The notes under the pieces were generated by a model. It did no database searches. It was not told where the DNA came from and worked only from the letters and a program-made list of their open reading frames with translations. A stretch of 64,000 bases of DNA. Source: Eledone cirrhosa (Eukaryota). Position numbers and translations under genes: made by a program. The stretch is taken from contig OZ024741.1 of the NCBI GenBank assembly GCA_964016885.1, positions 17,918,001-17,982,000 on the forward strand. Direction: 5' to 3'. Shown here piece by piece: positions 7,760 through 64,000 of this stretch (position 1 is its first letter; every line of letters begins with the position of its first letter).

Positions 7760-7895
7760 ATTATTTTACGATCGTTTCTGGGGGGGTAGTTCCCCGTAAG
7801 TCCATTCTATTATTGATCTATGTAAAATATATTACAAATTATCATAGTAAGAAAATATACATACTTCTTCTCTACTTGCCGTCTTCAGAAATAAT
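7760..7895 (-). ncRNA. Hammerhead ribozyme with ~100-nt domain II, in a PLE-like 3' fragment (7705-7895)
   Basis: attattt-CTGAAGA-[~100 nt]-GAAAC-gatc-GTA-aaataat; perfect 7-bp stem I, palindromic loop III. Confidence 0.65.
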
Positions 7896-8028
7896 TGTTT
7901 CTACTTTAGGCACAAGGCCAGCAATTATCCAGTGCATTACTGGTACTTTATTTTATCGACCCCGTAAGGATGAAAGGCAAAGTCAACCTCGGCGGGATTT
8001 GAACTCAGATCGTAAAGGGACGTAACTA
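7896..8028 (-). mobile_element. tRNA-derived SINE (Meta-domain-like), 5'-truncated, with 19-bp TSD
   Basis: B-box GAGTTCAAATCC followed by GACTTTGCCTTTCATCCT..GGGTCGATAAA. TGCCGTCTTCAGAAATAAT occurs at 7877-7895 and 8029-8047. Confidence 0.8.
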
Positions 8029-8182
8029 TGCCGTCTTCAGAAATAATGTATATATATATATACATACATGTATATATATGTACATACACACACACACATA
8101 TATATATAGAGAGAGAGTTTCAGAAGATCCCGTTAAGGGTGAAAGCAGCGATTCTTTGCTTAAACTTTAATCTGTTATTTTA

Positions 8183-13800: not shown

Positions 13801-16506
13801 GGTGGTGGTGGTGTTGGAGGTAGTAGCAGGGGTGGTGGTGTTGGGGTTGGAGGTAGTAGCAGGGGTGGTGGTGGTGGTGTTGGAGGTAGTAGCAGGGGTG
13901 GTGGTGGTGGTGTTGGAGGTAGTAGCAGGGGTGGTGGTGGTGGTGTTGGAGGTAGTAACAGGGGTGGTGGTGTTGGGGTTGGAGGTAGTAGCAGGGGTGG
14001 TGGTGTTGGAGGTAGTAGCAGGGGTGGTGGTGGTGGTGTTGGAGGTAGTAGCATTTGTGGTGGTGTTGGGGTTGGAGGTAGTAGCAGGGGTGGTGGTGGT
14101 GGTGTTGGAGGTAGTAGCAGGGGTGGTGGTGTTGGGGTTGGAGGTAGTAGCAGGGGTGGTGGTGGTGGTGTTGAAGGTAGTAGCAGGGGTGGTGGTGTTG
14201 GAGGTAGTAGCAGGGGTGGTGGTGGTGGTGTTGGAGGTAGTAGCAGGGTGGTGGTGGTGGTGTTGGAGGTAGTAGCAGGGGTGGTGGTGGTGGTGTTGGA
14301 GGTAGTAGCAGGGGTGGTGGTGTTGGGGTTGGAGGTAGCAGCAGGGGTGGTGGTGGTGGTGTTGGAGGTAGTAGCAGGGGTGGTGGTGTTGGGGTTGGAG
14401 GTAGTAGTAGGGGTGGTGGTGGTGGTGTTGGAGGTAGTAGCAGGGGTGGTGGTGGTGGTGTTGGAGGTAGTAGCAGGGGTGGTGGTGTTGGGGTTGGAGG
14501 TAGCAGCAGGGGTGGTGGGGTTGGGGTTGGAGGTAGTAGCAGGGGTGGTGGTGGTGGTGTTGAAGGTAGTAGCAGAGGTGGTGGTGGTGGTGTTGGAGGT
14601 AGTAGCAGGGGTGGTGGTGTTGGGGTTGAAGGTAGCAGCAGGGGTGGTGGTGTTGAGGTTGGAGGTAGCAGCAGGGGTGGTGGGGTTGGTGTTGGAGGTA
14701 GTAGCAGAGGTGGTGGTGTTGGGGTTGGAGGTAGCAGCAGGGGTGGTGGTGTTGGGGTTGGAGGTAGCAGCAGGGGTGGTGGTGTTGGGGTTGGAGGTAG
14801 CAGCAGGGGTGGTGGTGTTGGGGTTGGAGGTAGTAGCAGGGGTGATGGTGGTGGGAATGGAGGTAGTAGCAGGGGTGTTGGTGGTGGTGTTGGAGGTAGT
14901 AGCAGGGGTGGTGGTGTTTGGGTTGGAGGTAGTAGCAGGGGTGGTGGTGGTGGTGTTGAAGGTAGTAGCAGGGGTGGTGGTGGTGGTGTTGGAGGTAGTA
15001 GCAGGGGTGGTGGTGGTGGTGTTGGAGGTAGTAGCAGGGGTGGTGGGGTTGGGGTTGGAGGTAGTAGCAGGGGTGGTGGTGTTGGTGTTGGAGGTAGTAG
15101 CAGGGGTGGTGGTGTTGGTGTTGGAGGTAGTAGCAGGGGTGGTGGTGTTGGGGTTGGAGGTAGCAGCAGGGGTGGTGGTGGTGGTGTTGGAGGTAGTAGC
15201 AGGGGTGGTGGTGGTGGTGTGGAGGTAGTAGCAGGGGTGGTGGTGTTGGGGTTGGAGGTAGCAGCAGGGGTGGTGGGGTTGGTGTTGGAGGTAGTAGCAG
15301 GGGTGGTGGTTTTGGTGTTGGAGGTAGTAGCAGGGGTGGTGCTGGTGGTGTTGGAGGTAGTAGCAGGGGTGGTGGTGTTGGTGTTGGAGGTAGTAGCAGG
15401 GTTGGTGGTGTTGGTGTTGGAGGTAGTAGCAGGGGTGGTGGTTTTGGGGTTGGAGGTAGTAGCAGGGGTGGTGGTGGTGGTGTTGGAGGTAGTAGCAGGG
15501 GTGGTGGTGGTGGTGTTGGAGGTAGTAGCAGGGGTGGTGGTGTTGGGGTTGGAGGTAGTAGCAGGGGTGGTGGTGGTGGTGTTGGAGGTAGTAGCAGGGG
15601 TGGTGGTGGTGGTGTTGGAGGTAGTAGCAGGGGTGGTGGTGGTGGTGTTGGAGGTAGTAACAGGGGTGGTGGTGTTGGGGTTGGAGGTAGTAGCAGGGGT
15701 GGTGGTGTTGGTGTTGGAGGTAGTAGCAGGGGTGGTGGGGTTGGTGTTGGAGGTAGTAGCAGGGGTGGTGGTGTTGGGGTTGGAGGTAGTAGCAGGGTGG
15801 TGGTGTTGGAGGTAGTAGCAGGGGTGGTGGTGGTGGTGTTGAAGGTAGTAGCAGGGGTGGTGGTGGTGTTGGAGGTAGTAGCAGGGGTGGTGGGGTTGGG
15901 GTTGGAGGTAGCCGCAGGGGTGGTGGTGTTGGGGTTGGAGGTAGCAGCAGGGGTGGTGGTGTTGGTGTTGGAGGTAGTAGCAGGGGTGGTGGTGTTGGTG
16001 TTGGAGGTAGTAGCAGGGGTGGTGGTGGTGGTGTTGGAGGTAGTAGCAGGGGTGGTGGTGTTGGGGTTGGAGGTAGTAGCAGGGGTGGTGGTGGTGGTGT
16101 TGGAGGTAGTAGCAGGGGTGGGGTTGGTGTTGGAGGTAGTAGCAGGGGTGGTGGTGGTGGTGTTGGAGGTAGTAGCAGGGGTGGTGGTGGTGGTGTTGGA
16201 GGTAGTAGCAGGGGTGGTGGTGCTGGTGTTGGAGGTAGTAGCAGGGGTGGTGGTGTTGGGGTTGGAGGTAGTAGCAGGGGTGGTGGTGGTGGTGGTGGTG
16301 TTGGAGGTAGTAGCAGGGGTGGTGGTGGTGGTGTTGGAGGTAGTGGCAGGGGTGGTGGGGTTGGTGTTGGAGGTAGTAGCAGGGGTGGTGGTGGTGGTGT
16401 TGGAGGTAGCAGCAGGGGTGGTGGTGATGGTGTTGGAGGTAGTAGCAGGGGTGGTGGTGTTGGAGGTAGTAGCAGGGGTGGTGGTGTTGGTGTTGGAGGT
16501 AGCAGT
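10830..16506. repeat. 33-bp G-rich minisatellite, about 170 units
   Basis: Unit TTGGAGGTAGTAGCAGGGGTGGTGGTGTTGGTG, with occasional 27-bp variants. Confidence 0.97.
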
Positions 16507-18488: not shown

Positions 18489-19273
18489 TAAAGCTATAAG
18501 AAGCACTATCGGCCAATACAAGCCCAAAACTCAGAAGAATATGGAGTGTACATATAATAAAGTATAGGAAAATTATCGGGTAAAAATTATCAAGTAAAGA
18601 TTGCTAAGGAAGTGAATAACATTTTGAACCATATTACTAATATAGTCCAATGCTAAAACTAAAGCTAAACAAAGGTGGTGATATAGAGCGGGAATTATTG
18701 TACTATATATAATATAATATAATATAATATAATATAATATAATATAATATAATATAAAATAATATAATTGATAATGACAATAATAATAATAATATTAAAA
18801 ATAATATTAAAATGCCCAATATACATATATATATATATATACATATGTACACATATATACATATATATCAATACACATTTCCATCAATACAAGCACAAAC
18901 TAACCCTTATTAAGAGTTTAAATATAAATAAGGATAATAATAATAAGAAGAATAAAAATAAAAATAGAAATGAAAATAAAAATATAATTCATATATTATT
19001 CACAGTATAAAGTGAAGAAGAAATGATTAAAAGTAAACATATAATATATTATAATAAACTATATAATTACATAATTATATAATAGATAATCTCCAGTTAA
19101 TTTGCACAAACAATATAAATGTTACAATAATACTATAATAACAATACTTTAATATTTTAATATAATGGCATATAACTTAACAAATCATATAGAGTTACAG
19201 ACCTTGTTACTGCTCCTGATTGGTTGAGCTTCCTCCTATATACTGGTGTTTTGGCCTTTATATATCTGACAGT

Positions 19274-21936
19274 ATGCTAACAAAGAGTTACCAGCCTTTA
19301 TCTCTGAAGAATATTCCCATCTCCTCTAGAAATACTTATGAAAAGCTCTTAATTGCTAGTGTTAACTCCTTCGTAAAAAGGATAAGATGGCGTGCTTTCC
19401 ACTATGATATTAATAGGAATAGGACTGACCCCAAGCATAGAACTCATTTCAATAACTTTGGCTTCAAAACTTATAAGAGCCCACCACATAATGTTCTATT
19501 AGATAATTTTGAAAATGACTTACTTTCCCTTGTCAAAAATATTAAGTATAGGCCATATAATAGACATGGAAATTATAACTTAAAAATATTGTTAAGGGTT
19601 TTAGAGAGAATAAGTCTATTCTTGTCCCGGCTGATAAGACTAAGAATCTATACTCTATGGATTACAGTGCTTACCGTAATTTTATTTATAAGGAGCTGCA
19701 TAGAAATTATAAAAAGACTACGCAGGATAATTTGAACCGTATCAATAGTGAGGGTCTTAAGATAGTCTCGGACCTTGGCCTCGATAAGTATACCCAGCCA
19801 TATTACCCTAGGGAACCGAGATTTACTCTTAAGGATCATAAGGTAGACTTCATTAGTAATCCCTCTGTTAGACTTATCTGTCCTTCTAAGTCTGATATAG
19901 CCATAGTTAGTAAGAAAATCTTTGACCTTATTATACCAGATGTTAGGGAGAGGGTTAATTTTAACCTATGGGGGAACACAAAGGAGGTTATAGATTGGTT
20001 CTCTGGTATTGATAAACTTGAATCTAGTAGGTTTATCCAGTTCGATATTGATGCCTATTACACATCGATTTCACCCATCCTCCTTAACAAAGCCTTAATG
20101 TTGGCCATGAGAGTGTCCAGCCTTACACGATCACAGGTAGATATTATACTAGCAGCCCGTAGAACTATCATTAATTTCGAGGATACATTTTGGACCCGTA
20201 AAAACACGCCCAACAATTTCGACGTTACAATGGGTTCGAGTGATTCGGCCCAGGTAACTGATCTTGTTGGGCTGTTCCTCCTAAACGAACTATATGTTAC
20301 CTTTCCGCACCTTAAAGGCGGACTTTATCGTGACGATGCTTTGTTTGTGATTAACTCTAGCACCAACAACGTCGAGCATAATAAGAAGAAGCTTTATAAG
20401 TTTTTTAAAAGCTATAACCTTTCGATCACGATAGATAGAAATGATAGAGCGGTCAACTTTTTAGATGTGACTTTGGACTTGGCCACTAATAGTTTTAAAC
20501 CCTTCCATAAGCCTAATGAAATACTCTCTTATGTTAGTCCCAATTCTAACCACCCCAAATCTATGATAAGCTCTGTAATTAATGGTGTATCTAATAGGAT
20601 TTCCACACTCTCTAAGGACGTAGGAACATTTAATGCACATGCAGAGTACTATAATAATGCCCTAGCTAATTCCGGTTACTCTGGTAAAATACATTATAAT
20701 AATAGTAACCTTAGAAAATCTCCACTTACTTATAATAATAATAACATAATATCCCATAATATGGCCATGAATGGGAGTAGAAAGCATAAGAATCGTAGAA
20801 ATCACATAGGTGTATCTGAACCCATCCATAAGTTAAGCCACCGGACTCGTAATAGTGAGTCTAATACTTCTCGGAATCAAGTCGTGCCCTCTGAGCGCTC
20901 ACTCAGTTGTAATGCTTTTGCTAAATCTAATTCTAATAGTGTTGTTTCTACTGATCCTATTATTAGCCCTAATCCTTTTGATATACTTCCAGATAGCAGC
21001 AGATATACTAATGGTAGAAACAAAAAGAGACTTAATGGAGTTTCGGCTGATTCTAATAATGTGGTTTTAACTAGTCCTTGTAGTAACCCAAATCTTAATA
21101 AGGGGATATTAGATAACGGTAGAGTTGGTAAAGATAAAAATAGAAGGAGACTAAATACTTATTTTAACCCGCCATATAATCAGGAAGTATTAACTAACAT
21201 CCCTAGGTCTTTCTTTTCTATCTTAGAGAAAAATTTCCCTCCTACTAATAAATACCATAGTATTTTTAATAAAAATGTAATTAAACTTTCATTCTCTACC
21301 ACCCCTAATATTAGTTCTCATTTAGCTAGCACCAACAAAGGGAAAATTAGGGATGGATACTCCTCTCTACGTACTACTAGTCCGAATAGATCCATAAATA
21401 CCTTACCACCAGAGCAGACCTTATCTCATAGTAACCCTACGTGTGATGCATCACTACTTCAGCCGATCAATAGCACCCGGAAGTGTAACTGTAGAGTGAG
21501 TGCTAACTGCCCTTTAAACGGTAACTGCCTCTCTAAGAACATCGTTTATGCTTGTGTAGTTAAAACAAATTCCTCTAATAGTACATATATAGGCTCTACA
21601 TCTAACACTTTTAAGACTAGGTTTAATTCTCATATCTCTAATGTTAAACATGTTAGGTTTAAGAATTCTACTTTTTTAGCACACCATATCTGGGATCTTA
21701 AGGGGGCTAATATACCATATAGCCTTAATTGGCGAATAGTAGCACGCTCTAATAACCTTTCAACACATACTAAATTTTGTAATCTCTGTATCCTTGAGAC
21801 CCACTCTATAATTTTCTCTAGGGAAACCTTACTTAATAGAAAGTCTGAGATATTCTCTTCTTGCCCCCACGCCATTTCAAATTCTTACTTTTATTATAAA
21901 CCTAAAGGTTCTAGTAGTGTAAATTGTATCCATTAG
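19274..21936 (+). CDS. PLE polyprotein: reverse transcriptase plus C-terminal GIY-YIG endonuclease; one frameshift near 19585
   Basis: SLKNIP, VPADKT, QFDIDAYY, VTMGS, GLYRDD, FLDV, FNPPY, CNC..CPLNGNC, IVY..YIG, RFNSH, HIW, CNLC..E. Confidence 0.9.
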
Positions 21937-30424: not shown

Positions 30425-33400
30425 GAAGTAGAAGAATAATAGGAAATTATCTGTAGAGTCTATTAATGGAAATATATATGTGAAAGAGAAGAATAATAGG
30501 AAATTATCTGTAGAGTCTATTAATGGAACTATATATAAGAAACAGAAGAATAATAGGAAATTATCTGTAGAGTCTATTAATGGAACTATATATAAGAAAC
30601 AGAAGAATGATAGGAAATTATCTGTAGAGTCTATTAATGGAACTATATATAAGAAACAGAAGAATAATAGGAAATTATCTGTAGAGTCTATTCATGGAAC
30701 TATGTATGTGAAACAGAAGAATAATAGGAAATTATCTGTAGAGTTTATTAGTAGAACTATATATAAGAAACAGAAGAATAATAGGAAATTATCTGTAGAG
30801 TCGATTAATGGAACTATATATAAGAAACAGAAGAATAATAGGAAATTATCTGTAGAGTCTATTCATGGAACTATATATGTGAAACAGAAGAATAATAGGA
30901 AATTATCTGTAGAGTCTATTAATGGAACTATATATAAGAAACAAAAGAATAATAGGAAATTATCTGTAGAGTCTATTAATAGAACTATATATAAGAAACA
31001 GAAGAATAATAGGAAATTATCTGTAGAGTCTATTAATGGAACTATATATAAGAAACAGAAGAATAATAGGAAATTATCTGTAGAGTCTATTAATGGAACT
31101 ATATATAAGAAACAGAAGAATAATAGGAAATTATCTGTAGAGTCTATTCATGGAACTATATATGTGAAACAGAAGAATAATAGGAAATTATCTGTAGAGT
31201 CTATTAATGGAACTATATATAAGAAACAAAAGAATAATAGGAAATTATCTGTAGAGTCTATTAATGGAACTATATATGTGAAAGAGAAGAATAATAGGAA
31301 ATTATCTGTAGAGTCTATTAATGGAACTATATATAAGAAACAGAAGAATAATAGGAAATTATCTGTAGAGTCTATTAATGGAACTATATATAAGAAACAA
31401 AAGAATAATAGGAAATTATCTGTAGAGTCTATTAATGGAACTATATATGTGAAACAGAAGAATAATAGGAAATTATCTGTAGAGTCTATTAATGGAACTA
31501 TATATAAGAAACAGAAGAATAATAGAAAATGATCTGTAGAGTCTATTAATGGAACTATATATGTGAAACAGAAGAATAATAGAAAATTATCTGTAGAGTC
31601 TATTAATGGAACTATATATGTGAAACAGAAGAATAATAGGAAATTATGTGTAGAGTCTATTAATGGAACTATATATGTGAAACAGAAGAATAATAGGAAA
31701 TTATCTGTAGAGTCTATTAATGGAACTATATATGTGAAACAGAAGAATAATAGGAAATTATCTGTAGAGTCTATTAATGGAACTATATATAAGAAACAGA
31801 AGAATAATAGGAAATTATCTGTAGAGTCTATTAATGGAACTATATATGTGAAACAGAAGAATAATAGGAAATTATCTTTAGAGTCTATTAATGGAATTAT
31901 AAATGTGAAACAGAAGAATAATAGGAAATTATCTGTAGAGTCTATTAATGGAACAATATATAAGAAACAAAAGAATAATAGGAAATTATCTGTAGAGTCT
32001 ATTAATGGAACTATATATGTGAAACAGAAGAATAATAGGAAATTATCTGTAGAGTCTATTAATGGAACTATATATGTGAAACAGAAGAATAATAGGAAAT
32101 TATCTGTAGAGTCTATTAATGGAACTATATATAAGAAACAGAAGAATAATAGGAAATTATTTGTAGAGTCTATTAATGGAACTATATATGTGAAACAGAA
32201 GAATAATAGGAAATTATCTGTAGAGTCTATTAATGGAATTATAAATGTGAAACAGAAGAATAATAGGAAATTATCTGTAGAGTCTATTAATGGAACAATA
32301 TATAAGAAACAAAAGAATAATAGGACATTATCTGTAGAGTCTATTAATGGAACTATATATGTGAAACAGAAGAATAATAGGAAATTATCTGTAGAGTCTA
32401 TTAATGGAACTATATATAAGAAACAGAAGAATAATAGGAAATTATCTGTAGAGTCTATTAATGGAACAATATATAAGAAACAAAAGAATAATAGGAAATT
32501 ATCTGTAGAGTCTATTAATGGAACTATATATGTGAAACAGAAGAATAATAGGAAATTATCTGTAGAGTCTATTAATGGAACTATATATGTGAAACAGAAG
32601 AATAATAGGAAATTATCTGTAGAGTCTATTAATAGAACTATATATAAGAAACAGAAGAATAATAGGAAATTATCTGTAGAGTCTATTAATGGAACTATAT
32701 ATAAGAAACAGAAGAATAATAGGAAATTATCTGTAGAGTCTATTAATGGAACTATATATGTGAAACAGAAGAATAATAGGAAATTATCTGTAGAGTCTAT
32801 TAATGGAACTATATATAAGAAACAGAAGAATAATAGGAAATTATTTGTAGAGTCTATTAATGGAACTATATATAAGAAACAGAAGAATAATAGGAAATTA
32901 TCTGTAGAGTCTATTAATGGAACTATATATGTGAAATAGAAGATTAATAGGAAATTATCTGTAGAGTCTATTAATGGAACTATATATAAGAAACAGAAGA
33001 ATAATAGGAAATTAGTTGTAGAGTCTATTAATGGAACTATATATAAGAAACAGAAGAATAATAGGAAATTATCTGTAGAGTCTATTAATGGAATTATAAA
33101 TGTGAAACAGAAGAATAATAGGAAATTATCTGTAGAGTCTATTAATGGAACAATATATAAGAAACAAAAGAATAATAGGAAATTATCTGTAGAGTCTATT
33201 AATGGAACTATATATGTGAAACAGAAGAATAATAGGAAATTATCTGTAGAGTCTATTAATGGAACTATATATGTGAAACAGAAGAATAATAGGAAATTAT
33301 CTGTAGAGTCTATTAATGGAACTATATATAAGAAACAGAAGAATAATAGGAAATTATTTGTAGAGTCTATTAATGGAACTATATATGTGAAACAGAAGAA

Positions 33401-36400
33401 TAATAGGAAATTATCTGTAGAGTCTATTAATGGAATTATAAATGTGAAACAGAAGAATAATAGGAAATTATCTGTAGAGTCTATTAATGGAACAATATAT
33501 AAGAAACAAAAGAATAATAGGACATTATCTGTAGAGTCTATTAATGGAACTATATATGTGAAACAGAAGAATAATAGGAAATTATCTGTAGAGTCTATTA
33601 ATGGAACTATATATAAGAAACAGAAGAATAATAGGAAATTATCTGTAGAGTCTATTAATGGAACAATATATAAGAAACAAAAGAATAATAGGAAATTATC
33701 TGTAGAGTCTATTAATGGAACTATATATGTGAAACAGAAGAATAATAGGAAATTATCTGTAGAGTCTATTAATGGAACTATATATGTGAAACAGAAGAAT
33801 AATAGGAAATTATCTGTAGAGTCTATTAATAGAACTATATATAAGAAACAGAAGAATAATAGGAAATTATCTGTAGAGTCTATTAATGGAACTATATATA
33901 AGAAACAGAAGAATAATAGGAAATTATCTGTAGAGTCTATTAATGGAACTATATATGTGAAACAGAAGAATAATAGGAAATTATCTGTAGAGTCTATTAA
34001 TGGAACTATATATAAGAAACAGAAGAATAATAGGAAATTATTTGTAGAGTCTATTAATGGAACTATATATAAGAAACAGAAGAATAATAGGAAATTATCT
34101 GTAGAGTCTATTAATGGAACTATATATGTGAAATAGAAGATTAATAGGAAATTATCTGTAGAGTCTATTAATGGAACTATATATAAGAAACAGAAGAATA
34201 ATAGGAAATTAGTTGTAGAGTCTATTAATGGAACTATATATAAGAAACAGAAGAATAATAGGAAATTATCTGTAGAGTCTATTAATGGAACTATATATGT
34301 TTAAACAGAAGAATAATAGGAAATTATCTGTAGAGTCTATTAATGGAACAATATATAAGAAACAAAAGAATAATAGGAAATTATCTGTAGAGTCTATTAA
34401 TGGAACTATATATGTGAAACAGAAGAATAATAGGAAATTATCTGTAGAGTCTATTAATGGAACTATATATGTGAAACAGAAGAATAATAGGAAATTATCT
34501 GTAGAGTCTATTAATGGAACTACATATAAGAAACAGAAGAATAATAGGAAATTATCTGTAGAGTCTATTAATGGTACTATATATAAGAAACAGAAGAATA
34601 ATAGGAAATGATCTGTAGATTCTATTAATGGAACTATATATGTGAAACAGAAGAATAATAGGAAATTATCTGTAGAGTCTATTAATGGAACTATATATGT
34701 GAAACAGAAGAATAATAGGAAATTATCTGTATAGTCTATTAATGGAACTATATATAAGCAACAAAAGAATAATAGGAAATTATCTGTAGAGTCTATTAAT
34801 GGAACTATATATAAGAAACAGAAGAATAATAGGAAATTATCTGTAGAGTCTATTAATGGAACTATATATGTGAAACAGAAGAATAATAGGAAATTATCTG
34901 TAGAGTCTATTAATGGAACTATATATATGATACTGAAGAATAATAGGAAATTATCTGTAGAGTCTATTAATGGAACTATATATGTGAAACAGAAGAATAA
35001 TAGGAAATTATATGTAGAGTCTATTACTGGAACTATAAATGTGAAACAGAAGTATAATAGGAAATTATCTGTAGAGTCTATTAATGGAACTATAAATGTG
35101 AAACAGAAGAATAATAGAAAATTATCTGTAAAGTCGATTAATGGAACTATATATGTGAAACAGAAGAATAATAGGAAATTATCTGTAGAGTCTATTAATG
35201 GAACTATATATAAGAAACAGAAGAATAATAAGAAATTATCTGTAGAGTCTATTAATGGAACTACATATGTGAAACAGAAGAATAATAGGAAATTATCTGT
35301 AGAGTCTATTAATGGAACTATTTATAAGAAACAGAAGAATAATAGGAAATTATCTGTAGAGTCTATTAATGGAACTATATATAAGAAACAGAAGAATAAT
35401 AGGAAATGATCTGTAGATTCTGTTAATGGAACTATATATGTGAAACCGAAGAATAATAGGAAATTATCTATAGAGTCTATTAATGGAACTATATATAAGA
35501 AAGAGAAGAATAATAGGAAATTATCTGTAGAGTCTATTAATGGAACTATATATAAGAAACAGAAGAATAATAGGAAATTATCTGTAGAGTCTATTAATGG
35601 AACTACATATAAGAAACAGAAGAATAATAGGAAATTATCTGTAGAGTCTATTAATGGAACTATATATAAGAAACAGAAGAATAATAGGAAATGATCTGTA
35701 GATTCTATTAATGGAACTATATATGTGAAACAGAAGAATAATAGGAAATTATCTGTAGAGTCTATTAATGGAACTATATATAAGAAACAGAAGAATAATA
35801 GGAAATTATCTGTAGAGTCTATTAATGGAACTATATATGTGAAACAGAAGAATAATAGGAAATTATCTGTATAGTCTATTAATGGAACTATATATAAGAA
35901 ACAGTAGAATAATAGGAAATTATCTGTAGAGTCTATTAATGTAACTATATATAAGAAACAAAAGAATAATAGGAAATTATCTGTAGAGTCTATTAATGGA
36001 ACTATATATAAGAAACAGTAGAATAATAGGAAATTATCTGTAGAGTCTATTAATGTAACTATATATAAGAAACAAAAGAATAATAGGAAATTACCTGTAG
36101 AGTCTATTAATGGAACTATATATAAGAAACAAAAGAATAATAGGAAATTATCTGTAGAGTCTATTAATGGAACTATATATAAGAAACAGTAGAATAATAG
36201 GAAATTATCTGTAGAGTCTATTAATATAACTATATATAAGAATCAAAAGAATAATAGGAAATTATCTGTAGAGTCTATTAATGGAACTATATATAAGAAA
36301 CAGAAGAATAATAGGAAATTATGTGTAGAGTCTATTAATGGAACTATATATGTGAAACAAAAGAATAATAGAAAATTATCTGTAGAGTCTATTAATGGAA

Positions 36401-37953
36401 CTATATATGTGAAACAGAAGAATAATAGAAAATTATCTGTAGAGTCTATTAATGGAACTATATATGTGAAACAGAAGAATATTAGGAAATTATCTGTAGA
36501 GTCTATTAATGGAACTATATATGTGAAACAGAAGAATTATAGGAAATTATCTGTAGAGTCTATTAATGGAACTATATACATGAAACAGAAGAATAATAGA
36601 AAATTATCTGTAGTGTCTATTAATGGAACTATATATAAGAAACAGAAGAATAATAGGAAATTATCTGTAGAGTCTATTAATGGAACTATACATAAGAAAC
36701 AGAAGAATAATAGGAAATTATCTGTAGAGTCTATTAATGGAACTATATATGTGAAACAGAAGAATAATAGGAAATTATCTGTAGAGTCTATTAATGGAAC
36801 TATATATGTGAAACAGAAGAATAATAGGAAATTATCTGTAGAGTCTATTAATGGAACTACATATAAGAAACAGAAGAATAATAGGAAATTATCTGTAGAG
36901 TCTATTAATGGAACTATATATAAGAAACAGAAGAATAATAGGAAATGATCTGTAGATTCTATTAATGGAACTATATATGTGAAACAGAAGAATAATAGGA
37001 AATTATCTATAGAGTCTATTAATGGAACTATATATAAGAAACAGAAGAATAATAGGAAATTATCTGTAGAGTCTATTACTGGAACTATATATGTGAAACA
37101 GAAGAATAATAGGAAATTTCTGTAGAGTCTATTAATGGAACTATATATGTGAAACAGAAGAATAATAGGAAATTATCTGTAGAGTCTATTAATGGAACTA
37201 TATATAAGAAACAGAAGAATAATAGGAAATTATCTGTAGAGTCTATTAATGGAACTATATATAAGAAACAGAAGAATAATAGGAAATTATCTGTAGAGTC
37301 TATTAATGGAACTATATATGTGAAATAGAAGAATAATAGGAAATTATCTGTAGAGTCTATTAATGGAACTATATATAAGAAAGAGAAGAATAATAGGAAA
37401 TTATCTGTAAAGTCTATTAATGGAACTATATATGTGAAACAGAAGAATAATAGGAAATTATCTGTAGAGTCTATTAATGGAACTATATATGTGAAATAGA
37501 AGAATAATAGGAAATTATCTGTAGAGTCTATTAATGGAACTATATATAAGAAAGAGAAGAATAATAGGAAATTATCTGTAAAGTCTATTAATGGAACTAT
37601 ATATGTGAAACAGAAGAATAATAGGAAATTATCTGTATAGTCTATTAATGGAACTATATATGTGAAACAGAAGAATAATAGGAAATTATCTGTATAGTCT
37701 ATTAATGGAACTATATATGTGAAACAGAAGAATAATAGGAAATTATCTGTAGAGTCTATTAATGGAACTATATATGTGAAACAGAAGAATAATAGGAAAT
37801 TATCTGTAGAGTCTATTAATGGAACTATATATGTGAAACAGAAGAATATTAGGAAATTATCTGTAGAGTCTATTAATGGAACTATATATAAGAAACAGAA
37901 GAATAATAGGAAATTATCTGTAGAGTCTATTAATGGAACTATAAATGTGAAAC
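30425..37953. repeat. 57-bp AT-rich satellite, about 132 units
   Basis: Unit AAACAGAAGAATAATAGGAAATTATCTGTAGAGTCTATTAATGGAACTATATAT(AAG/GTG). Confidence 0.98.
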
Positions 37954-37974
37954 ATTCCAGAAGTTTAGCAGTTA

Positions 37975-44465: not shown

Positions 44466-45506
44466 TTATATATAGGGTTTAAAGTTTTGGAACGAGTGTC
44501 GGAAGCTGTGTTGGCAAGTTGCGAACACTTCTGATTTTTTATTAAGGAGATTATGTTTAGAGAAGATGATAGTATGGGTCTCTAGTAGACAGAGGTTACA
44601 AAATTTATTAGGTGGTTTGTACGATGTTGCACTATCTACCACTTCCCATTTAAGTGTATATATTTTATTTTTAGTTTTTAGATGGTGTATGTAGCTAGAT
44701 AGTGAAGTGGAGTTGGCTAGACTGTGTTTTTTGAAAGAGTGGAGGTGCGAATTGTATCTAGTTTTGAAGCAGTTAGAAGTGGAGCCTATATAGGTTTTAG
44801 AAGAGCTGTTAGTTGTGACTGTACATGAGTATATGATATCCTTGGTTAAGCATTTTTTATCTAAAGGGCAGGTTCTGCTTGATCTACAGTTACAATTACT
44901 CTGGGTGCTAGTCTGCCGGTTACTATGCTGTGTAGAAGTTTGGATGTTAGCTATAGGGTTATGGTTATGTGGGTTGTGGTACGCAGCGTTAATGTTTACA
45001 CTAGTGTTATTACTATTATTTCCATTGATATTACGGTTATTTGTTATAATGTTACTTTGACTGTTATTTTGAATGTTATTTTGAAGGTTTATCGACCGTT
45101 GTGATTTAGTTTGTTGGAAGTAAGAATTAATTTTTCTTTTATTTGTACTAACTATGTGGTATGCTAAGTTAGGCGTAGTAGAGTATGAGATCTTAATAGT
45201 GTTTTTATTTAAAAGGCCGTGGTACCTGTGGCCGGATGGGAAGTGTTTATCTAGTAGTGAGAAGAAAGCCCTAGGAAGGTTGGTAGAGACGTTTAAATTG
45301 AAAGGAGGGTTGAAAAATGTATTATTTCTTCATCTATTTCTGTTTTTTATGTCTGGTGATTTGTTTCCTTTAATGTCCCTATGGTCATTTCTGTGGTGCG
45401 GGTTACTTTTGTTGTTACAATCCCTATTAGTGTGTGTGCAGTTGCTATTCCTATTATTAAATTTTCCCATGGACATGTTGTGTGAAATGATGTTGTAGCT
45501 ATGTGT
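44466..45506 (-). pseudogene. PLE linker plus GIY-YIG endonuclease (missed by ORF track); one in-frame TGA at 45330-45332
   Basis: Manual translation: NIISHNMSM..FFNPPF..CNCRSSRTCPLDKKC..IIYSC..TYIGSTSNCFKTRYNSH..CNLCLLE..LLNKKSE..CQH; homologous to ORF 19657-21936. Confidence 0.9.
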
Positions 45507-49614: not shown

Positions 49615-50921
49615 CACAAAACACTCAAGTCACATTTCAGAAAGATTCCCCAAAGAATTCATCTTGGAAGGACTTAAATTAGTATTGGAAAACAACCACT
49701 TCCTCTTTGACAAAGAACTTTATCTACAAATAAAAGGAACAGCCATGGGTACCAAAGTGGCCCCTACATATGCAATGCTCGTTATGGGTCACTTAGAGGC
49801 AAAATTATATTCCCAACTACAGATAACATTCAGTCACGACTTCGCCTTCTAAATTAATAAAAACTGGATACGTTACCTAGATGACTGCTTCATCTTCTGG
49901 AACAGAAGCCAAACAGACCTACAAAAATTTTATTCGATCTTAAACAGGCTTCATGAAGCTATACAATTCACTATGGAATGTAACGAAAAGGAACTGCCCT
50001 TTCTAGATATCCTCATCATTAAAGAAGGGGAAAATATCATAACGGACCTATTTTGCAAACCCACTGACACACACCAATACTTAAATTTCCGGTCAGCACA
50101 CCCCTCACATACGAAAAGGAACATTCCCTTCAACATGGCAAGGCGCATCTGCACTATAGCAACACACCCCGTACTACAAGAAAAAAGATTATGTGACCTG
50201 AAAAAATTCCTTAAAAAACAAAAATACCCGATGAAACTCATCAACGCAGCCATCTCCAAGGCTAAGAACATCCCAATAAAAACAGAGAAAACCAAACCCA
50301 CAACATACAAAAGAAAACCCTGCTATCTCTTTTTTCATCACTCACAACCCAGGGAACATCAACATTGTGAAAACTGCTAAGCAGTATCTCCCGATTCTAC
50401 AGCAATCTACCAAAATGAATGCACTCTTAAAAAACACACAGATAATTTATAGCAGATGCCAAGCACCCAACCGTAAAAAACTAATTACCAAGGTAAAATT
50501 TACGACCAACATGGAATCAATGCAAGTGACGAAATGCGGGGACACTAGATGTGGAACCTGTGAACTCATCGAAGAGGGCAAACAGTTGTCCTTCAAAAAC
50601 CATGATAATTTCAAGGTCAATGCAAACATGAACTGCAAAACGAAAAACCTAATATATTGCGGAACATGTCCACAGTGTAAAGAGTATTACATTGGGGAAA
50701 CCGGAACGGGACTACATGATAGAGTCCGGGTACATAAACAACAAATTAAAGACTCCACAGTCAGAAATACCACATGTAGCGCACACTTTGCATCATGCGG
50801 GAAGGGAAAATTCACAATCTTCCCTTTCTTCAAGATATGGTCGGATAACGAACATTTCCGCAGATATAAAGAAGAATTCTTCATTGAAAAATTTAAACCA
50901 CTACTGAACACGAAAAAATGA
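49615..50921 (+). pseudogene. Neptune-like RT plus Cys-rich linker plus GIY-YIG; stop at 49850 and frameshift near 50300
   Basis: GTAMGT..APTYA, RYLDD, LPFLD, KPTD, SAHP, RCGTC, LIYCGTCPQC..YIGETG..RVRVH, PLLN. Confidence 0.9.
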
Positions 50922-51419: not shown

Positions 51420-51780
51420 TAATTAAATACTTAATACAATAACAGAGATAGTTTAAAGCTAAACTCTGACTGGTAACCATCTCACTCAACAAACATTAGG
51501 TTATATTAAAATATAAACCCAATTTAAGTGTTTGGGGTTCTAACAATATGTATAATGTGGAAAAACCAGTTGTATTATTTTATGAGATATAATTAAAGTT
51601 AAAGTATATCTCTCTTTCCAAACAATTGTTTCATTATAAGTTTTCTACAAGTTTGGGAGAATGTTTCCAGTTTATGTAGAAGCCTAATATATATTCATGT
51701 AAGAATATATTTAGGTGGGCACCTATAAATCATCAGTGGAAACCCATTAAACATTGATATAAGAAAACAATTTCTTACCG
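51420..51780 (-). mobile_element. PLE 3' end nested within the Neptune element span
   Basis: Branched hammerhead followed by the ACCC..TTGAGT hairpin (51484-51538), ending in TA-rich repeat. Confidence 0.6.
51615..51742 (-). ncRNA. Hammerhead ribozyme with branched domain II
   Basis: tttcca-CTGATGA-t-ttatagg-[cctaaatatatt/aatatatattagg hairpin][ttctaca/tgtagaa hairpin]-cttataa-t-GAAAC-aatt-GTT-tggaaa. Confidence 0.75.
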
Positions 51781-52445
51781 CTGTCAAAAATCATGTCCGT
51801 AAAGTTGCTCTCTCTCACCTCGAATGACCGCCAAATTTGAAATTCCAGCAGTTTTTGACTGAGGAAGTATCATAGCGACACGAAGCGGGAAGGGGAGACA
51901 ACCCACGATCCACGAAATGAGGAAAAAAAAATAATATACACGCGGGTTAATTAGTTTTTTTGAAAACATTATCAATCCAACGTGTTTAAGAACTCAATTG
52001 AAAATAAAAAAATAAATATATGCTTGTATAACTTACACACGCATATAGATATTTTCTTAGGCTAAATCAGAAGTTGTACCCGAATAAGAACCGCTTCTCA
52101 TAACCGCAGTAAATGCAGAAAGTTATGCTATAAAGGGCAAATGGGAATATAATTCTCCGGCCGAATTATTAAGAGTAAAATATAAAACACACGCGGGTTA
52201 ATTAGTTATTTCAAAACCAATATTAATTCCTCGTGTAAAGAACTCAATTAATAAAAGAAAATAAATACATATATGCATGTAATTATATACGTAGGCATAA
52301 TGTGTCTTTATGTGTTTGTGTGTACATATATATATATATATATATGTATGTATATGTATGTATGTATATGTATATATATATATATATGTATGTATATGTA
52401 TGTGTATATATGTATTTGTGTATGTATGTTTTGTATGTGTATCTG

Positions 52446-57770: not shown

Positions 57771-58296
57771 ATATTGTTATACTTTGGGGGGGGGGGGTCA
57801 TGTTGCCAATAAGAACTTAAATAGAAAACATGAATGAAATAGCAACATCACAACTTACAATTAAGGACAAAATGAAAACACACACACATAGAACAAACAA
57901 CCAACTAATTAAATAAACAAATAAAAACACACACAGGCACCCGGATGTAACACATGCGCAAACTATGCACACAACACACACAAAAACAAGATGGCGTAGG
58001 ACAGAACAAAGGAGAGGCACAAAACAAAGAAAGGCATCCCCGGTCACTGATGAGGTCACAGAATGTGTGACGAAAGAACTTTGACAATATATGAACAACC
58101 GTCCGGTTGTGGAACCAACCAACCAACCGGAAATTTATAAATTTTTTTAAATTTATAATTTAATTTATAATAAATTGGAGTGAAAGCAACTGGTACGTGT
58201 GTTCCTTATTTGCAACATGACCCTCCCAAAGTATAACAATATCGGTTTCAACACACGTTTTCAGATAAAGAATCTTGCTAAACAAATTCAGAAACG

Positions 58297-58613: not shown

Positions 58614-61600
58614 TTACAGATATATACTCAGAGTCGGCCCATTCACTCGGGCCATTCTTGCTTCTCTCACCCATCTTTCAACAAAATGCTGGGAAGAGAG
58701 CACTTCCTTCTCTACTCTGATTTTCCTTTTCAAATGAAATTTGAAAAAGTCAATCAGAGCATCACCGAAGAGGTAAGTGCTCGTCTTCAGCCCTTTCAAA
58801 CGTGTCCACCATACTATCTCTTTCGCCATGGCCACCAGACAGATAAAAACTGCCTGCCCTTCCCGGCTAAAGGAGGAGGGCGGGGCAATCCTCACGATAG
58901 ACTCAGATGATAGCTGGATCCGTCCTAAACGCGACAGCAGGTGTTCGACATAAACCCACAAGTCAGCAATTTTCGGACACTGGACGAGTGCGTGCAGGAC
59001 GGTTTCGTGGCCCTGCGCGCATCTCGGACATGCCCGGCTGACGGCACCTCCATGCCTGTAGAGTTTATCCCGAACTGGCAAGGCTCCTCGGTAGCACTGC
59101 CAGGCCAGAGATTTCTGGAAGTTGTCCATAGGCCCCGGCCCGAAAGTTCTTCCGAAGAGATTGGCTAGTTGATTTTCGTCGACGCCTAGAGTTTCCCCAA
59201 GTACGTCGTCGCTCTTCCCCTCCACTAATCCTCTATAGAACGCCGAGGTGGAGTTTCCACCGATCACATTGCCCGATTGGTCGAGGGCTGTGAGCGCCTG
59301 AAGACATTCCAGTCTCCAGGCGCTCCCTCTCGGTCTTCGCTTGACCCAGGACTGCAGCTCCGTCAAGGAAACGAGCTGGGGAAAAACGCGTCTAGCAAAC
59401 GGCGACCACACCTGATCACCGTCGAGGAAGAGGTGGAGATGTCGTAGCCTGAGCGCGTGCCTGCGCATCATCAGCCACGGCATGCCCAGCCCTCCACGTA
59501 GCGGGTGTTGACAACAGATGGACCGCCTGACCATCGGAGCACGTCCCTTCCACAAAAAGCGAAAGAGCAAACGCTCCAGCGCAGTCAGGCGAGGCTTAGG
59601 ACAAGGTACGACGGTTAGGCGGTAGCAGATGACAGACGCGATGTACGCGTTAGCCACCTCCGCTCGACCTTTCAGGGATAGCTTCCTCTCCGCCCATTTC
59701 TGGGTGAGAGAAGCCACCCTGCTCGTCACCTCGTCCCAGTTTTTGTCCGTCTGGAGGTCCGGACCGAACCAGACCCCTAGCAATTTAACCGGTCCGTCCG
59801 TCCAGCGCCCGACGACGCTGTTGGACGGCATGGACCTGCCTCTCCAGGTGCCGAGCTGCAGGCCCACTGACTTTTCCTGGTTGATCATTGCTCCTGTCAC
59901 CGCTTCGTATTCTCTTAGTGTAGTGCCGATCGCCTCGATGTGTTTGGCGTTCGACACCACTACGGTGACATCGTCCGCATATGCTGACACGGATCTTCCG
60001 CATCCTAGTTCGCGCGGGACTCCCCTCAACGTCTCCAGTTTGTGCAGTAATGGCTCGAGAGTCAATACGTACAAGAGGGACGAGAGGGGACATCCTTGGC
60101 GGACCGAGCGCATGATGTTGAACGGTTCCGACAGGTGACCGTTCACTCTCACCACAGAGCAGATGTCGCTGTGCATGGCAGCGATCCAGCCTCTGAAGAC
60201 GGGCCCAAAGCCAGCCGCCCTCAGGACTGCCGCTAGGTAACGATGGTCGACCCTATCGAAAGCTTTCGACTGATCTAAATTGATCAAGGACCCACCCGTG
60301 CCAGGTTCCCTAGCTACCCTCTCTACGATGTATCGCATGAGGTGGAGGTTGTCGTGGATGGATCTGTCGGGAATGGCGCATGTCTGCGCCTCTCCCACCA
60401 GACCACCAACGACAAGCGCCAACCTCTTTGCTAGCACCTTGGCCAAAATCTTAAACTCTGTGTTTAGCAGAGTTATGGGCCGGAAATTGTCTATGTTATC
60501 CCCCTTGTTCGGATCCTTTCTCAGCAGTGCCACCGCTCCTCGGCTCACAGAACTGGGAATTCTCCCGTTCTGTTGCCAGTTGCAGTAGACGTCCGCCAAG
60601 AGGCCTCCGAACAAGTCTGGCATCTGTACGTAAAGTTCATAGGGCAGACCATCCAAACCAGGCGATTTACCCCTTGTGCAGCCAGTCATTGCCTCCCGTA
60701 CTTCAGCGGCTGTTATCGGCTTTTCGCAACACCTCGCCTCAGTGGCCGAGAGCCGCGGCAGTCCGTCGAGGTAGACACTAAAGTCCATCCCTCTACCCGG
60801 CCCCCCGCTGCCCCCGAACAGCTGAGCGAAGTGTCGCTGAAAAGCTTCACACATTTGCCCGGGATCGAGTAGCATGCGCCCGTCGTGGTCCACCAAAGAC
60901 CGGATCGTGGCTTTGTTGCCACGACGCGCCTCCGCCACTCGGGCCCATTGAACGGCTTTCGTCCCCTCGTGTCTGAGAGCACGCACCCTAGCTCTGACAA
61001 CGCAGCCTTCGTGCTTTGCATTGAAGAATTGGTCAAGGGCCAATTTCGCCGCAAGCACGTCGGTCGCAATGCCTTTGCTAAGCGCCTCGTCTAATTTTCT
61101 AACTAGTTCTCCCTCTGCTCTATTTTTCTCTATTGCTAAAGCCTTACTAAACCTAATCGATTCTATTCTAATCGCTCTTTTCAGAGCAAACCACCACTTG
61201 TTGTTGACGATGGCCCCCGTCAACGCCCGCTTAACTAGTTCGCTAATCCGGTCTCTGTAGGCCTTGCGCGCTGGTAAGGACGCGTTTAGCTTCCAGTAGC
61301 CGGGTCCTCGTCTATGAAGCCTATCTAAGTCAAGCACACAGATCACGAATTTGTGGTCCGTGTAGCTGACTATCTTGAATTGTGGACAGCCTATGCTAGA
61401 CCTATCTATTTCCCTACAAAATACTCTATCTAGATATGATCTGGATGACCCTATGCGGTTTGTCCAAGTCCACATTGGCACATTCGGGAAATCCAATCGG
61501 TACCTGTCAGACAGTTCAAAACGCCTGAGCAGGTTGGTGAGGCTCTTGCACCCTCCACCCCTATCCGCTAATCCCACACAGTCCCAGCGTGCATCTAAGA

Positions 61601-62033
61601 TCCCGTTCCAGTCGCCCACTAACACTAAAGAGCGGGACGTTCCAAGAAAGGTCTCCAGACGCCGGAAGAAATCAGGCCGCCCTGCTCCTGTCGGGGCATA
61701 GACGGCCACTAGCCTGAAAGCTTGCCCGTCTCCGCTGGTCACGTCCAGCACCACCAGCTTACCCTCTGGGTCCAGGAAGATGGCCCGTATGGCGAGATCC
61801 AAACCTCTCCGAAAAAGCACAGCAACTCCTCCACCCGATCCAGGACGGCTGGGAGATGCGTACACATCGTAGCCGCCGAAGATCGGTGCGAAGGCCCGTG
61901 CTTCGGAGATTCTGGTCTCGCTGATGGCCACTACATCTATGTTTAGTGACCTGAGGTCGTTGAGCAGGTGACCCTGCTTCCATGACGACCCCAAGCCACG
62001 CGCATTTATGCTGCCTATTCTGAGTGAGGTCAT
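58614..62033 (-). CDS. LINE ORF2: APE endonuclease, reverse transcriptase, C-terminal Cys/His domain (1139 aa)
   Basis: INARG, SETR, GDWN, YLDR, TDH, KSPGLDG, FRPITLLN, DQSKAFD, QGCPLS, YADD, CPRC..H..C; no stops. Confidence 0.97.
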   Translation of the reverse strand: MTSLRIGSINARGLGSSWKQGHLLNDLRSLNIDVVAISETRISEARAFAPIFGGYDVYASPSRPGSGGGVAVLFRRGLDLAIRAIFLDPEGKLVVLDVTSGDGQAFRLVAVYAPTGAGRPDFFRRLETFLGTSRSLVLVGDWNGILDARWDCVGLADRGGGCKSLTNLLRRFELSDRYRLDFPNVPMWTWTNRIGSSRSYLDRVFCREIDRSSIGCPQFKIVSYTDHKFVICVLDLDRLHRRGPGYWKLNASLPARKAYRDRISELVKRALTGAIVNNKWWFALKRAIRIESIRFSKALAIEKNRAEGELVRKLDEALSKGIATDVLAAKLALDQFFNAKHEGCVVRARVRALRHEGTKAVQWARVAEARRGNKATIRSLVDHDGRMLLDPGQMCEAFQRHFAQLFGGSGGPGRGMDFSVYLDGLPRLSATEARCCEKPITAAEVREAMTGCTRGKSPGLDGLPYELYVQMPDLFGGLLADVYCNWQQNGRIPSSVSRGAVALLRKDPNKGDNIDNFRPITLLNTEFKILAKVLAKRLALVVGGLVGEAQTCAIPDRSIHDNLHLMRYIVERVAREPGTGGSLINLDQSKAFDRVDHRYLAAVLRAAGFGPVFRGWIAAMHSDICSVVRVNGHLSEPFNIMRSVRQGCPLSSLLYVLTLEPLLHKLETLRGVPRELGCGRSVSAYADDVTVVVSNAKHIEAIGTTLREYEAVTGAMINQEKSVGLQLGTWRGRSMPSNSVVGRWTDGPVKLLGVWFGPDLQTDKNWDEVTSRVASLTQKWAERKLSLKGRAEVANAYIASVICYRLTVVPCPKPRLTALERLLFRFLWKGRAPMVRRSICCQHPLRGGLGMPWLMMRRHALRLRHLHLFLDGDQVWSPFARRVFPQLVSLTELQSWVKRRPRGSAWRLECLQALTALDQSGNVIGGNSTSAFYRGLVEGKSDDVLGETLGVDENQLANLFGRTFGPGPMDNFQKSLAWQCYRGALPVRDKLYRHGGAVSRACPRCAQGHETVLHALVQCPKIADLWVYVEHLLSRLGRIQLSSESIVRIAPPSSFSREGQAVFICLVAMAKEIVWWTRLKGLKTSTYLFGDALIDFFKFHLKRKIRVEKEVLSSQHFVERWVREARMARVNGPTLSIYL

Positions 62034-62068
62034 GTTTAAAATAGAGTGGAAAAGATGGGAAAGACCAC

Positions 62069-64000
62069 TTACCGTACTTTTGGTAGAGGAGGGATGGTTT
62101 TTACATCCCTTTTCACTTGATCGTCTGGTGAAGGGACCGTTGAATCGTCCCTTCGGCTGGTCGTCGGCTCTTCTAAGAGAATGTCTGAATATACTCTTCG
62201 ATTGATGGTTCCTCCTAGGTCCCTGAAATCACCAACTGCGTTGGGGAATTTCGTTTTGATGTTTGTGTATTGTTTCTGTGCTATTTTTAGCAGTCTTATG
62301 TTAGTTGGCGTTTTGATTGGTGCTGGTATTATGTAGTCCTGTTGTGAAATGTCTGTGTGTTCAATTATGTAAGTCATTAGTTTCTTGTTGTGTGTGTTTA
62401 TTGCCGTGCATTTGTTTTTCTGGGGGTGGGGTGTGGTTCTGCTATTTTCTTGTCGTTGTTGCTGGGTGTGTGTGTTTTGTTGTTGTGTTTGCGATGTTGG
62501 TGCTTGTGGTGGTGGTGTTGAAGGTGTTGTTGGCGGTGGGGTTGTCGCCGGTGGTGATGGTGGTGCTGGTGTGGGTGGTGATGGTGTTGGTGGTGTTGCT
62601 GCTGTGGGTCTCTTTGCAGTAGACTTTACTCTTTTCTCATTTCTTTCCTCCCTTTTCAAAGGCGACGATGCGCTGCTTCTGCGTTTGTGCCTTCTTGCGA
62701 CCTTTTGCCATCCCTCTCCCACCTCACACTCCATGTCTGATTCTGTAAGGTCGGGGAGGGGTACCAGCTCCACTCTTTCACTTGTTGTTGTTGGTGATGT
62801 TTGCACTGGAGTCTCTGTTGCAGCTGCATTTGGTATTGCTGTTGTTGTTGTTAATATTTCCACTGCTGCTGCTGTCTTTGATTTCCGTGGAGTGGGTATG
62901 GGTGCCACGGACCTATCGTTCCTGGTTGCCGCTTGTCCTGTTGCTGGTAGCCGTGGAGCCGGATTCGGAAGGAGGGGGGTTTTCTCCTTTCTCAGGGTCT
63001 TCTCGTTGCAGAAGGCCCTGAGGTGAGTCTTCGATCCACAGCGAAAGCATTTCGGGCGTTTGCCTTCAACACTTATGGGCAGTTGAGTGCCGTTATCGAA
63101 GTCTATCACATCCGGGATAGCTTCGATGCACTCCTGGTTGGTTTGGATTAGCATCTCAATGGAGGAGCCGACCCAATCTTCTCTTACTTTTTTCTGTACT
63201 TGCAGTACAGTTGTTTTGTCCTCGATTCCGACGAGGACAGACGCGGCCAGCCAAGAAGGGGTCATTCCGGGGGGGACGTGGGTCAGTTTGACCCTCACAA
63301 TTTTTTGCCCACAGTAGGAGGGCACCAACACCATTTCCTCGCTCCTTAGGGTCACTACTGATTGGGCCTTTGCCTCCTGGGGTGTGGCAAAAAGTACGTC
63401 TACGGTGGCATATTTTTTGCCTCGGGTGATGTGCGTTTTCCGCTGCCACACAGACCCCAAGGCTTTTTGTATTTGGGCCTCTGTGGCTCTTTCCACCCTA
63501 CGGGATTTTGTACTTACTGTACGGTACGTGACCGTACAGTGCTCTTGGGTTTCGAAAAAATTTTTCGCTGCCTTGCAGATTGCTCGGTGTCCGTTCTTTG
63601 TCACCATCTTCTTCGCTTCCTCTAATTCCTCATTTGTTATGAGGATTGTTTCCAAGTTTTTCGCAATACCTGCAAATGAGATTGGTTTTTCTCTGCTGTT
63701 GTTGTTGTCGTCAGAGCTGCTGGTACTTTTGTTGTTGCTGCAGGTACTACGACTACTGCCTCCGCCGCTGTTGCTGTGGTTGTTGTTGGTGTTGCTGCTG
63801 CTAATGCTGTTGTTGTTTATGCTGCTGCTGATGCTGTTGCGGCTGCTACTGTTGTTTTCATTGTCACTGTTGCTGTTGTTATTACGGCTGCTACTGCTAT
63901 TATTCCTGACGTCAGACGAATGAACTGGGTTTTCGTATTTCCCGCACACCTGTTTCGTCGCTGTCGTCGTCGTCGTGGAGAAACCTTGCACGCTTTGCAC
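62069..64000 (-). CDS. LINE ORF1 gag-like protein with CCHC knuckle; true start uncertain (frame open at window edge)
   Basis: CFRCGSKTHLRAFC; N/S-rich N-terminus; P/T-rich linker. Confidence 0.88.
   Translation of the reverse strand: MQSVQGFSTTTTTATKQVCGKYENPVHSSDVRNNSSSSRNNNSNSDNENNSSSRNSISSSINNNSISSSNTNNNHSNSGGGSSRSTCSNNKSTSSSDDNNNSREKPISFAGIAKNLETILITNEELEEAKKMVTKNGHRAICKAAKNFFETQEHCTVTYRTVSTKSRRVERATEAQIQKALGSVWQRKTHITRGKKYATVDVLFATPQEAKAQSVVTLRSEEMVLVPSYCGQKIVRVKLTHVPPGMTPSWLAASVLVGIEDKTTVLQVQKKVREDWVGSSIEMLIQTNQECIEAIPDVIDFDNGTQLPISVEGKRPKCFRCGSKTHLRAFCNEKTLRKEKTPLLPNPAPRLPATGQAATRNDRSVAPIPTPRKSKTAAAVEILTTTTAIPNAAATETPVQTSPTTTSERVELVPLPDLTESDMECEVGEGWQKVARRHKRRSSASSPLKREERNEKRVKSTAKRPTAATPPTPSPPTPAPPSPPATTPPPTTPSTPPPQAPTSQTQQQNTHTQQQRQENSRTTPHPQKNKCTAINTHNKKLMTYIIEHTDISQQDYIIPAPIKTPTNIRLLKIAQKQYTNIKTKFPNAVGDFRDLGGTINRRVYSDILLEEPTTSRRDDSTVPSPDDQVKRDVKTIPPLPKVR

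Follow-up and report, generated by a model that had tools for sequence, protein, structure and literature searches.

A predicted type I hammerhead with a covarying branched domain II in a non-coding Penelope-like repeat of Eledone cirrhosa

The motif at 51615-51742 of the window, by which we mean the 64,000-nucleotide stretch of the Eledone cirrhosa genome analysed here, is by its sequence a genuine type I hammerhead motif on the minus strand. Its domain II is predicted to open into two hairpins, and all three helices of this domain show double-sided compensatory changes when five subfamilies of the host repeat (family A) are aligned. The comparisons made here support the view that what is new is the covarying branched domain II, the type I hammerhead of Penelope-like elements (PLEs) and retrozymes being otherwise known. 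We favour, with modest confidence, the reading that this is a self-cleaving, dimer-type hammerhead in a non-coding PLE repeat, in which the branch would be a folding scaffold docking onto the tail of helix I.

A sequence scan of the window finds the catalytic core CUGAUGA at 51736-51730 on the minus strand. The segment GAAAC-AAUU-GU-U at 51632-51621 (minus strand) completes it with the GAAA core, a 2-bp helix III, a palindromic AAUU loop and the GUU triplet. Both segments had been noted in the sequence-only reading. Helix I of the window copy pairs 51742-51737 with 51620-51615 (both minus strand), the second strand being the start of the predicted 3' cleavage product, with the predicted cut 3' of GUU, between 51621 and 51620. 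Family A has the CUGANGA, GAAA and NUH core elements, the three helices and the open helix I of a type I hammerhead. The 6-bp stem I reported earlier is present in the window copy and is not a family trait: helix I has 4-5 bp across the family, with a U-A to C-G change at pair 4, a fifth pair in 69 of 139 distinct copies and a sixth in seven. When the motif was compared with Rfam, as the sequence-only reading had proposed, it matched no curated hammerhead model, either at the gathering score within the window or locally at E<=10. The Rfam models also missed the small hammerheads of the window, so this failure is not specific to the branch.

Domain II spans 51729-51633 (minus strand, 97 nt; 93-97 nt and branched in family A). 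Read 5' to 3' on the minus strand, it consists of U10.1 and the 5' strand of an 8-bp basal helix (51729-51721), a junction strand GCCCA (51720-51716), hairpin IIa (51715-51683; 13 bp with one bulge here, the inner part variable), one C, hairpin IIb (51681-51643; 7 bp, an internal loop, 2-3 bp and a loop, with an acceptor-like UGUAG in its 3' strand), one A, and the 3' strand of the basal helix with U11.1 (51641-51633). The base of stem II, earlier counted as 7 bp, therefore has 8 bp beneath a U.U at positions 10.1-11.1, which is U.U, A-U or G-C depending on the subfamily and mostly U.U. That this base opens into two hairpins is borne out by folding: domain II alone gives a three-way junction (z -5.28, with none of 200 shuffles as good), and a multiloop is predicted in 122 of 137 distinct copies. 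The GCCCA strand is likewise present in 122 of the 137 (the parse tolerated one mismatch here).

The junction structure was derived from the window copy, and subfamily A3, encountered by chance in locus L105 at 68% identity, serves as an out-of-sample test. Between A1 and A3, five of the 19 core pairs of domain II differ (basal 6 and 8, IIa 2 and 4, IIb 2); all five changes are double-sided, all five pairs are still paired and none of the 19 is broken, so that the check for covariation across copies came out in favour of the fold. The chance that ten changes land as five pairs by placement alone is about 2.5e-5, before complementarity is demanded. Wobble intermediates of the changed pairs occur in other subfamilies. 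The basal helix has two double-sided changes, the outer 4 bp of IIa show A-U/G.U/G-C and C-G/U-A changes, and pair 2 of IIb shows a U-A/U.G/C-G change.

Conservation across copies is consistent with this structure. Basal pairs are held in 122-136 of the 137 distinct copies and outer pairs 1-4 of IIa in 131-135, in a parse that fixed part of IIb and the junction; unconstrained alignments give the same conservation. In 24 chosen rows, 99.2% of cells pair, as against 36-43% in slid controls. Helix IIb and the junction show almost no sequence variation among copies. The exceptions are a C.A mismatch at basal pair 8 in one subfamily (13 of 137 copies) and a G-to-A change inside the junction (10 of 137). 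Taken by itself, the number of double-changed pairs does not exceed that in shuffles (147/500), the changes amount to a few subfamily events, and RNAalifold on 59 A1/A2 copies missed the basal helix and paired the core to the helix III strand. Genome-wide, a single copy without the branch was found, and we conclude that no branch-less subfamily fitting that pattern has amplified.

The motif lies in a 5'-truncated single copy of a non-coding unit of about 1,010 nt, family A1, at 51424-52300 on the minus strand. BLAST of the unit covers 52277-51424 at 99%, and the 5' edge near 52300 was read from the sequence; the 3' end near 51424 adjoins a (TA)/(TATG)n microsatellite. Judged from its sequence features, family A is a Penelope-like, retrozyme-type, non-coding repeat that targets (TA)n. 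It inserts into (TA)n, its units range from 700 to 1,010 nt with no frame longer than 53 aa, its 3' end is fixed about 190-197 nt past the predicted cut, its 5' truncation is variable and partial tandem copies are frequent. With one hammerhead per non-coding unit, this is the layout of a retrozyme or non-autonomous PLE. The family is abundant. In the 3.0-Gb genome there are 1,339 candidates for the window motif, of which the 40 scored are 99-100% identical; a core-plus-junction pattern has 3,673 genomic matches against 14 for the reversed control; and exact 3'-end probes hit 946 places for A1 and 791 for A3. Contigs of two sequencing runs from one study cover the family A element, a kind of evidence that cannot show ends or level. 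In a metagenome scan of at least 120 loci, one passed a crude downstream filter and by eye had no hammerhead.

The neighbouring PLE ORFs at the loci examined offered no coding partner for family A. Those adjacent to it are either nested and equipped with small hammerheads of their own or set off by (TA)n. A Neptune-type PLE at L093 was rejected as a partner, having its own hammerhead with a 12-nt arm and an A2 copy nested in its (TA)n. At L041 (the same place as L411) the A1 5' part stands in place of a portion of a Hydra/B 3' UTR, immediately upstream of a family B hammerhead; this was rejected as homology between family A and Hydra 3' UTRs, being a chimera found at one of 15 loci. Within the window, a broken Neptune-like PLE fragment (RT end plus GIY-YIG, 49853-50918, plus strand) and the family A copy meet tail to tail on either side of the microsatellite; the opposite strand and the intervening microsatellite leave kinship between them unsupported.

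Several other elements were recorded in the window. A type I hammerhead with a 26-nt arm, a 10-bp helix I and a palindromic UAUAUA helix III lies at 7237-7281 (plus strand) and belongs to a family common in the loci fetched. Two identical minimal hammerheads with 14-nt arms occur 513 nt apart at 17911-17881 and 17398-17368 (minus strand), and a hammerhead with an 18-nt arm lies at 58047-58081 (plus strand), whose family ends C-terminal GIY-YIG PLEs in L050, L192 and L258. Hydra-type PLE ORFs with the CxCX5C linker are found at 19220-21936 (plus strand, with a GIY-YIG match) and 44469-45329 (minus strand). The window also holds a LINE open frame of 1,204 aa with AP endonuclease, RT and zf-RVT (58617-62228, minus strand) and two large tandem arrays, 33 bp x 173 copies at 10840-16502 and 57 bp x 132 copies at 30430-37954.

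Long arms recur in this genome, but of the families examined only family A has the branch. The sequence-only reading had named a motif at 7760-7895 (minus strand) as a second example of the branched layout. That motif is a decayed copy of family B, which is unrelated to A and lies in the 3' UTR of a Hydra-type PLE. The family B arm, of about 102 nt, folds as a rod with no branch in all 24 distinct copies; because the window copy is decayed, a GGGG/CCCC hairpin imitates a second branch. Family B has 5,745 pattern matches, some belonging to other families. The family C/D arm is unbranched in 16 of 18 copies. ORF ends carrying a CxCX5C linker and GIY-YIG lie upstream of family B at nine of 15 loci and upstream of C at three of five C/D loci; these ORF ends match the Hydra clade as it is defined in the available text of PMC8557442. 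At the C/D loci L007, L069, L106, L108 and L112 the rod arm is 78-82 nt with GT/GC...AG ends; its excision gives a canonical helix II, and it is a candidate intron in loop II of a Hydra-type hammerhead. Another hammerhead family, whose arm measures 49-52 nt and whose helix III is a palindromic (C/U)UAAUUAG, was seen at L021, L096, L076, L105, L110 and L095. Copies of family B often form inverted pairs, arranged head to head and beginning immediately 5' of the core, as at L050:1500-1810 and further loci of this family. A SINE-like repeat lies at or beside the family B 5' core strand in the window (about 7900-8030, with a duplication of about 17 bp) and at L042, L049 and L039, and its recurrence at separate family B loci suggests a preferred target.

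Family A was compared with several known systems. With PLE type I hammerheads, as described in the part of PMC4209133 available, it shares the type I topology, the intact core, a helix I of 4-5 bp, a basal helix II of 7-8 bp, a short palindromic helix III, a position near the element 3' end and many dispersed truncated copies. It differs in that its helix II ends in a two-hairpin junction of about 80 nt where theirs ends in a small loop, and in that its 10.1-11.1 position is mostly U.U where theirs is G-C. Hydra-clade PLE hammerheads (Craig et al. 2021, PMC8557442, available in part) share (TA)n targeting and a hammerhead near the 3' end, and 14 of 26 Hydra rows of File S2 have the U10.1.U11.1 closure. 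The Hydra motifs published there have a helix II of 3-7 bp and loops of 3-10 nt; the longest loop in File S2 is 35 nt, in a Chlamys-related PLE-X. In contrast to the Hydra clade, family A has no RT/CxCX5C/GIY-YIG ORF, and no Hydra partner was found for it.

Animal non-LTR retrozymes, which the available portions of PMC7229834 and 10.64898/2026.07.22.740005 regard as non-autonomous PLE derivatives, are likewise non-coding, occur as tandem or monomeric repeats and carry a single type I hammerhead in each unit, and the axolotl HHR_Amex2 also has a U.U at the base of helix II (Li, Clavereau and Pollet 2026, 10.64898/2026.07.22.740005, in its available part). The family A unit is at or above the upper range reported in those portions (972 bp), and its arrays, known here from DNA, are partial dimers without the canonical loop 1-loop 2 motif. 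Pseudoknot-stabilised hammerheads (Perreault et al. 2011, PMC3088659, available in part) share a possible Watson-Crick contact between helix I and the helix II domain, but the candidate strand in family A comes from a multibranch junction nine pairs from the core. The discontinuous CLEC2 hammerhead also has a large insertion in one arm, but according to the available text of PMC6155905 it is type III, with 150-1,500 nt inserted in helix I, in a host gene 3' UTR. Our literature search, which was not exhaustive for long-arm variants, turned up no natural hammerhead whose helix II domain is multibranched. The earlier proposal of a distinct branched class is supported as regards the covarying branch on a PLE-type hammerhead but overstates its rank, because the core, the topology, the U.U closure and the palindromic helix III are shared with PLE and retrozyme type I hammerheads, and the supposed second example is unbranched.

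The proposed mechanism begins with tandem or read-through transcripts, which would pair through the palindromic helix III and be cut after GUU into unit-length RNA. The helix III loop varies in family A yet stays self-complementary or nearly so (AAUU, GAUC, GAGUC, A-GACGUC), with AAUU in 89 of 139 distinct copies. As a short palindromic helix III is a known mark of dimer cleavage in the part of PMC4209133 available, its retention suggests dimer cleavage here. A PLE reverse transcriptase borrowed in trans would then prime internally about 190 nt downstream of the cut, and some cDNAs would run off at the cut end while most would pass uncut or religated RNA. Internal priming downstream of a protein-assisted PLE hammerhead has been published, and cleavage is dispensable for insertion in vitro (PMC11167929).

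The 5' ends of insertions bear on this scheme. We anchored A1 insertions by their 3' ends at 90 loci from the first 100 of the 946 places, all on contig C1, and merged these to 85 insertions, or 83 after removal of two with duplicated flanks. Within 19 nt past the predicted cut there are 16 5' ends in 90 at-risk passes against 1.9 expected, two or three of the 16 calls being doubtful, and the insertion at L219 starts exactly at the predicted cut. Among TA-microhomology sites, 11 of 21 5'-end events fall at the single site nearest the cut. For A3, six of 30 insertions start 5-27 nt past the cut, and in a second pass one starts within a base of it, a pattern inseparable from microhomology. This pile-up of 5' ends just past the predicted cut is an indirect hint of cleavage; stalling of the reverse transcriptase at folded RNA, or microhomology, may produce a similar one. 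In the first pass 61 of the 83 insertions read through the cut site. Most family A cDNAs are thus read-through, in agreement with anole Poseidon, for which uncut RNA is the main template (PMC11167929).

In the scaffold reading, the junction GCCC(A) would pair with the tail (U)GGGC that precedes helix I, replacing the usual contact between loop I and loop II. The tail lies at 51742-51746 (minus strand) and reads UGGG followed by C in the family and U here. GGGC and GCCC(A) predominate in each of the five subfamilies, whereas the sequence upstream of the tail diverges, and both strands are nearly invariant and complementary, so that a pseudoknot is possible; stem I-stem II pseudoknots occur in about 40% of hammerheads, according to the available text of PMC3088659. 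No covariation of these strands was seen at the subfamily level. Genome-wide there are ten double mutants at three pseudoknot pairs, eight of them complementary, which is no more than a rough estimate of independent decay predicts, and the pseudoknot is unproven. The minimum-energy fold of the whole motif is not the hammerhead, the active fold lying 2.3-4.3 kcal/mol higher in six of six sequences tried.

The main rival, possibly also the history behind the scaffold reading, is an intron origin of the branch, which we hold to be possible but unlikely. It states that the branch is a PLE pLTR intron inside loop II, whose splicing compacts the ribozyme or which in family A is a relic that folds out of the way. 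Rods with intron-like ends stand in loop II of both families C/D and B, and the family A branch may accordingly be an intron relic. In C/D, GT or GC follows the basal helix directly in 15 of 18 and AG stands at -14/-15 in 13 of 18, and excision of the segment leaves a helix II of 23-26 nt in five of the seven shown; in family B, GTAT(G/A)T is present in all 29 and ACATAG in 24 of them. The corresponding position in family A is G(C), with AG at -12 in 110 of 115 and UGUAG in 109 of 115. PLEs also keep 5' UTR introns (PMC8557442, in its available part), and a D. virilis hammerhead is altered by an intron end (PMC4209133, likewise). However, the family A donor is poor, with a U1 match of 1.5 or 3.8 of 9 against 5.6-6.1, and the alternative GT reads GA in 38 of 115. 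The A and C/D arms have no sequence similarity, and the invariant junction bases are unexpected in a passive relic. No precisely spliced genomic copy was found (short copies: one in A, two in C/D and 19 in B, with no clean junction by eye). A combined scenario, in which a Penelope pLTR intron moved into loop II, splicing toggles the ribozyme between two forms in coding Hydra elements and in the non-coding family A the intron was domesticated into a structured domain so that the junction contact switches cleavage on, seems to us still somewhat less likely.

It is improbable that the branch is instead a handle for the borrowed PLE RT-endonuclease, with the protein shifting a core-sequestered fold to the active one. 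The near invariance of helix IIb and the junction, and an active fold 2-4 kcal/mol above the inactive one, would suit such a role, and cleavage by the anole Poseidon hammerhead requires its protein (PMC11167929). However, the RNA needed in that case lies within the first 172 nt of the ORF and the RT starts past the cut (PMC11167929), the Hydra-linked families here carry different, unbranched arms, and no partner protein has been identified for family A. The suggestion in the sequence-only reading that the extra domain binds protein or regulates cleavage is supported no better than a scaffold or pseudoknot role or an intron origin. That the motif is a dead or non-cleaving relic whose fold is preserved for some different purpose, for example RNA stability, would fit the inactive lowest-energy fold, the 61 of 83 read-through insertions and the low in vitro activity of metazoan PLE hammerheads (PMC4209133, available in part), but is very improbable given a core and GUH triplet kept across subfamilies only about 70% alike, a helix III that remains palindromic through its changes and 5' ends that pile up at the cut.

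Descriptor settings for hammerheads, as given in the available text of PMC8557442, permit short spacers of 7-17 nt, at most 35-50 nt, and thousands of oversized hammerheads per genome can therefore go uncounted; PLE families may be wrongly scored as ribozyme-less in this way. The pile-up of insertion 5' ends bears on whether PLE hammerheads cleave the RNA that is reverse-transcribed. A natural hammerhead with a conserved branched insert of about 80 nt in helix II offers a convenient way to test the gating of PLE hammerheads.
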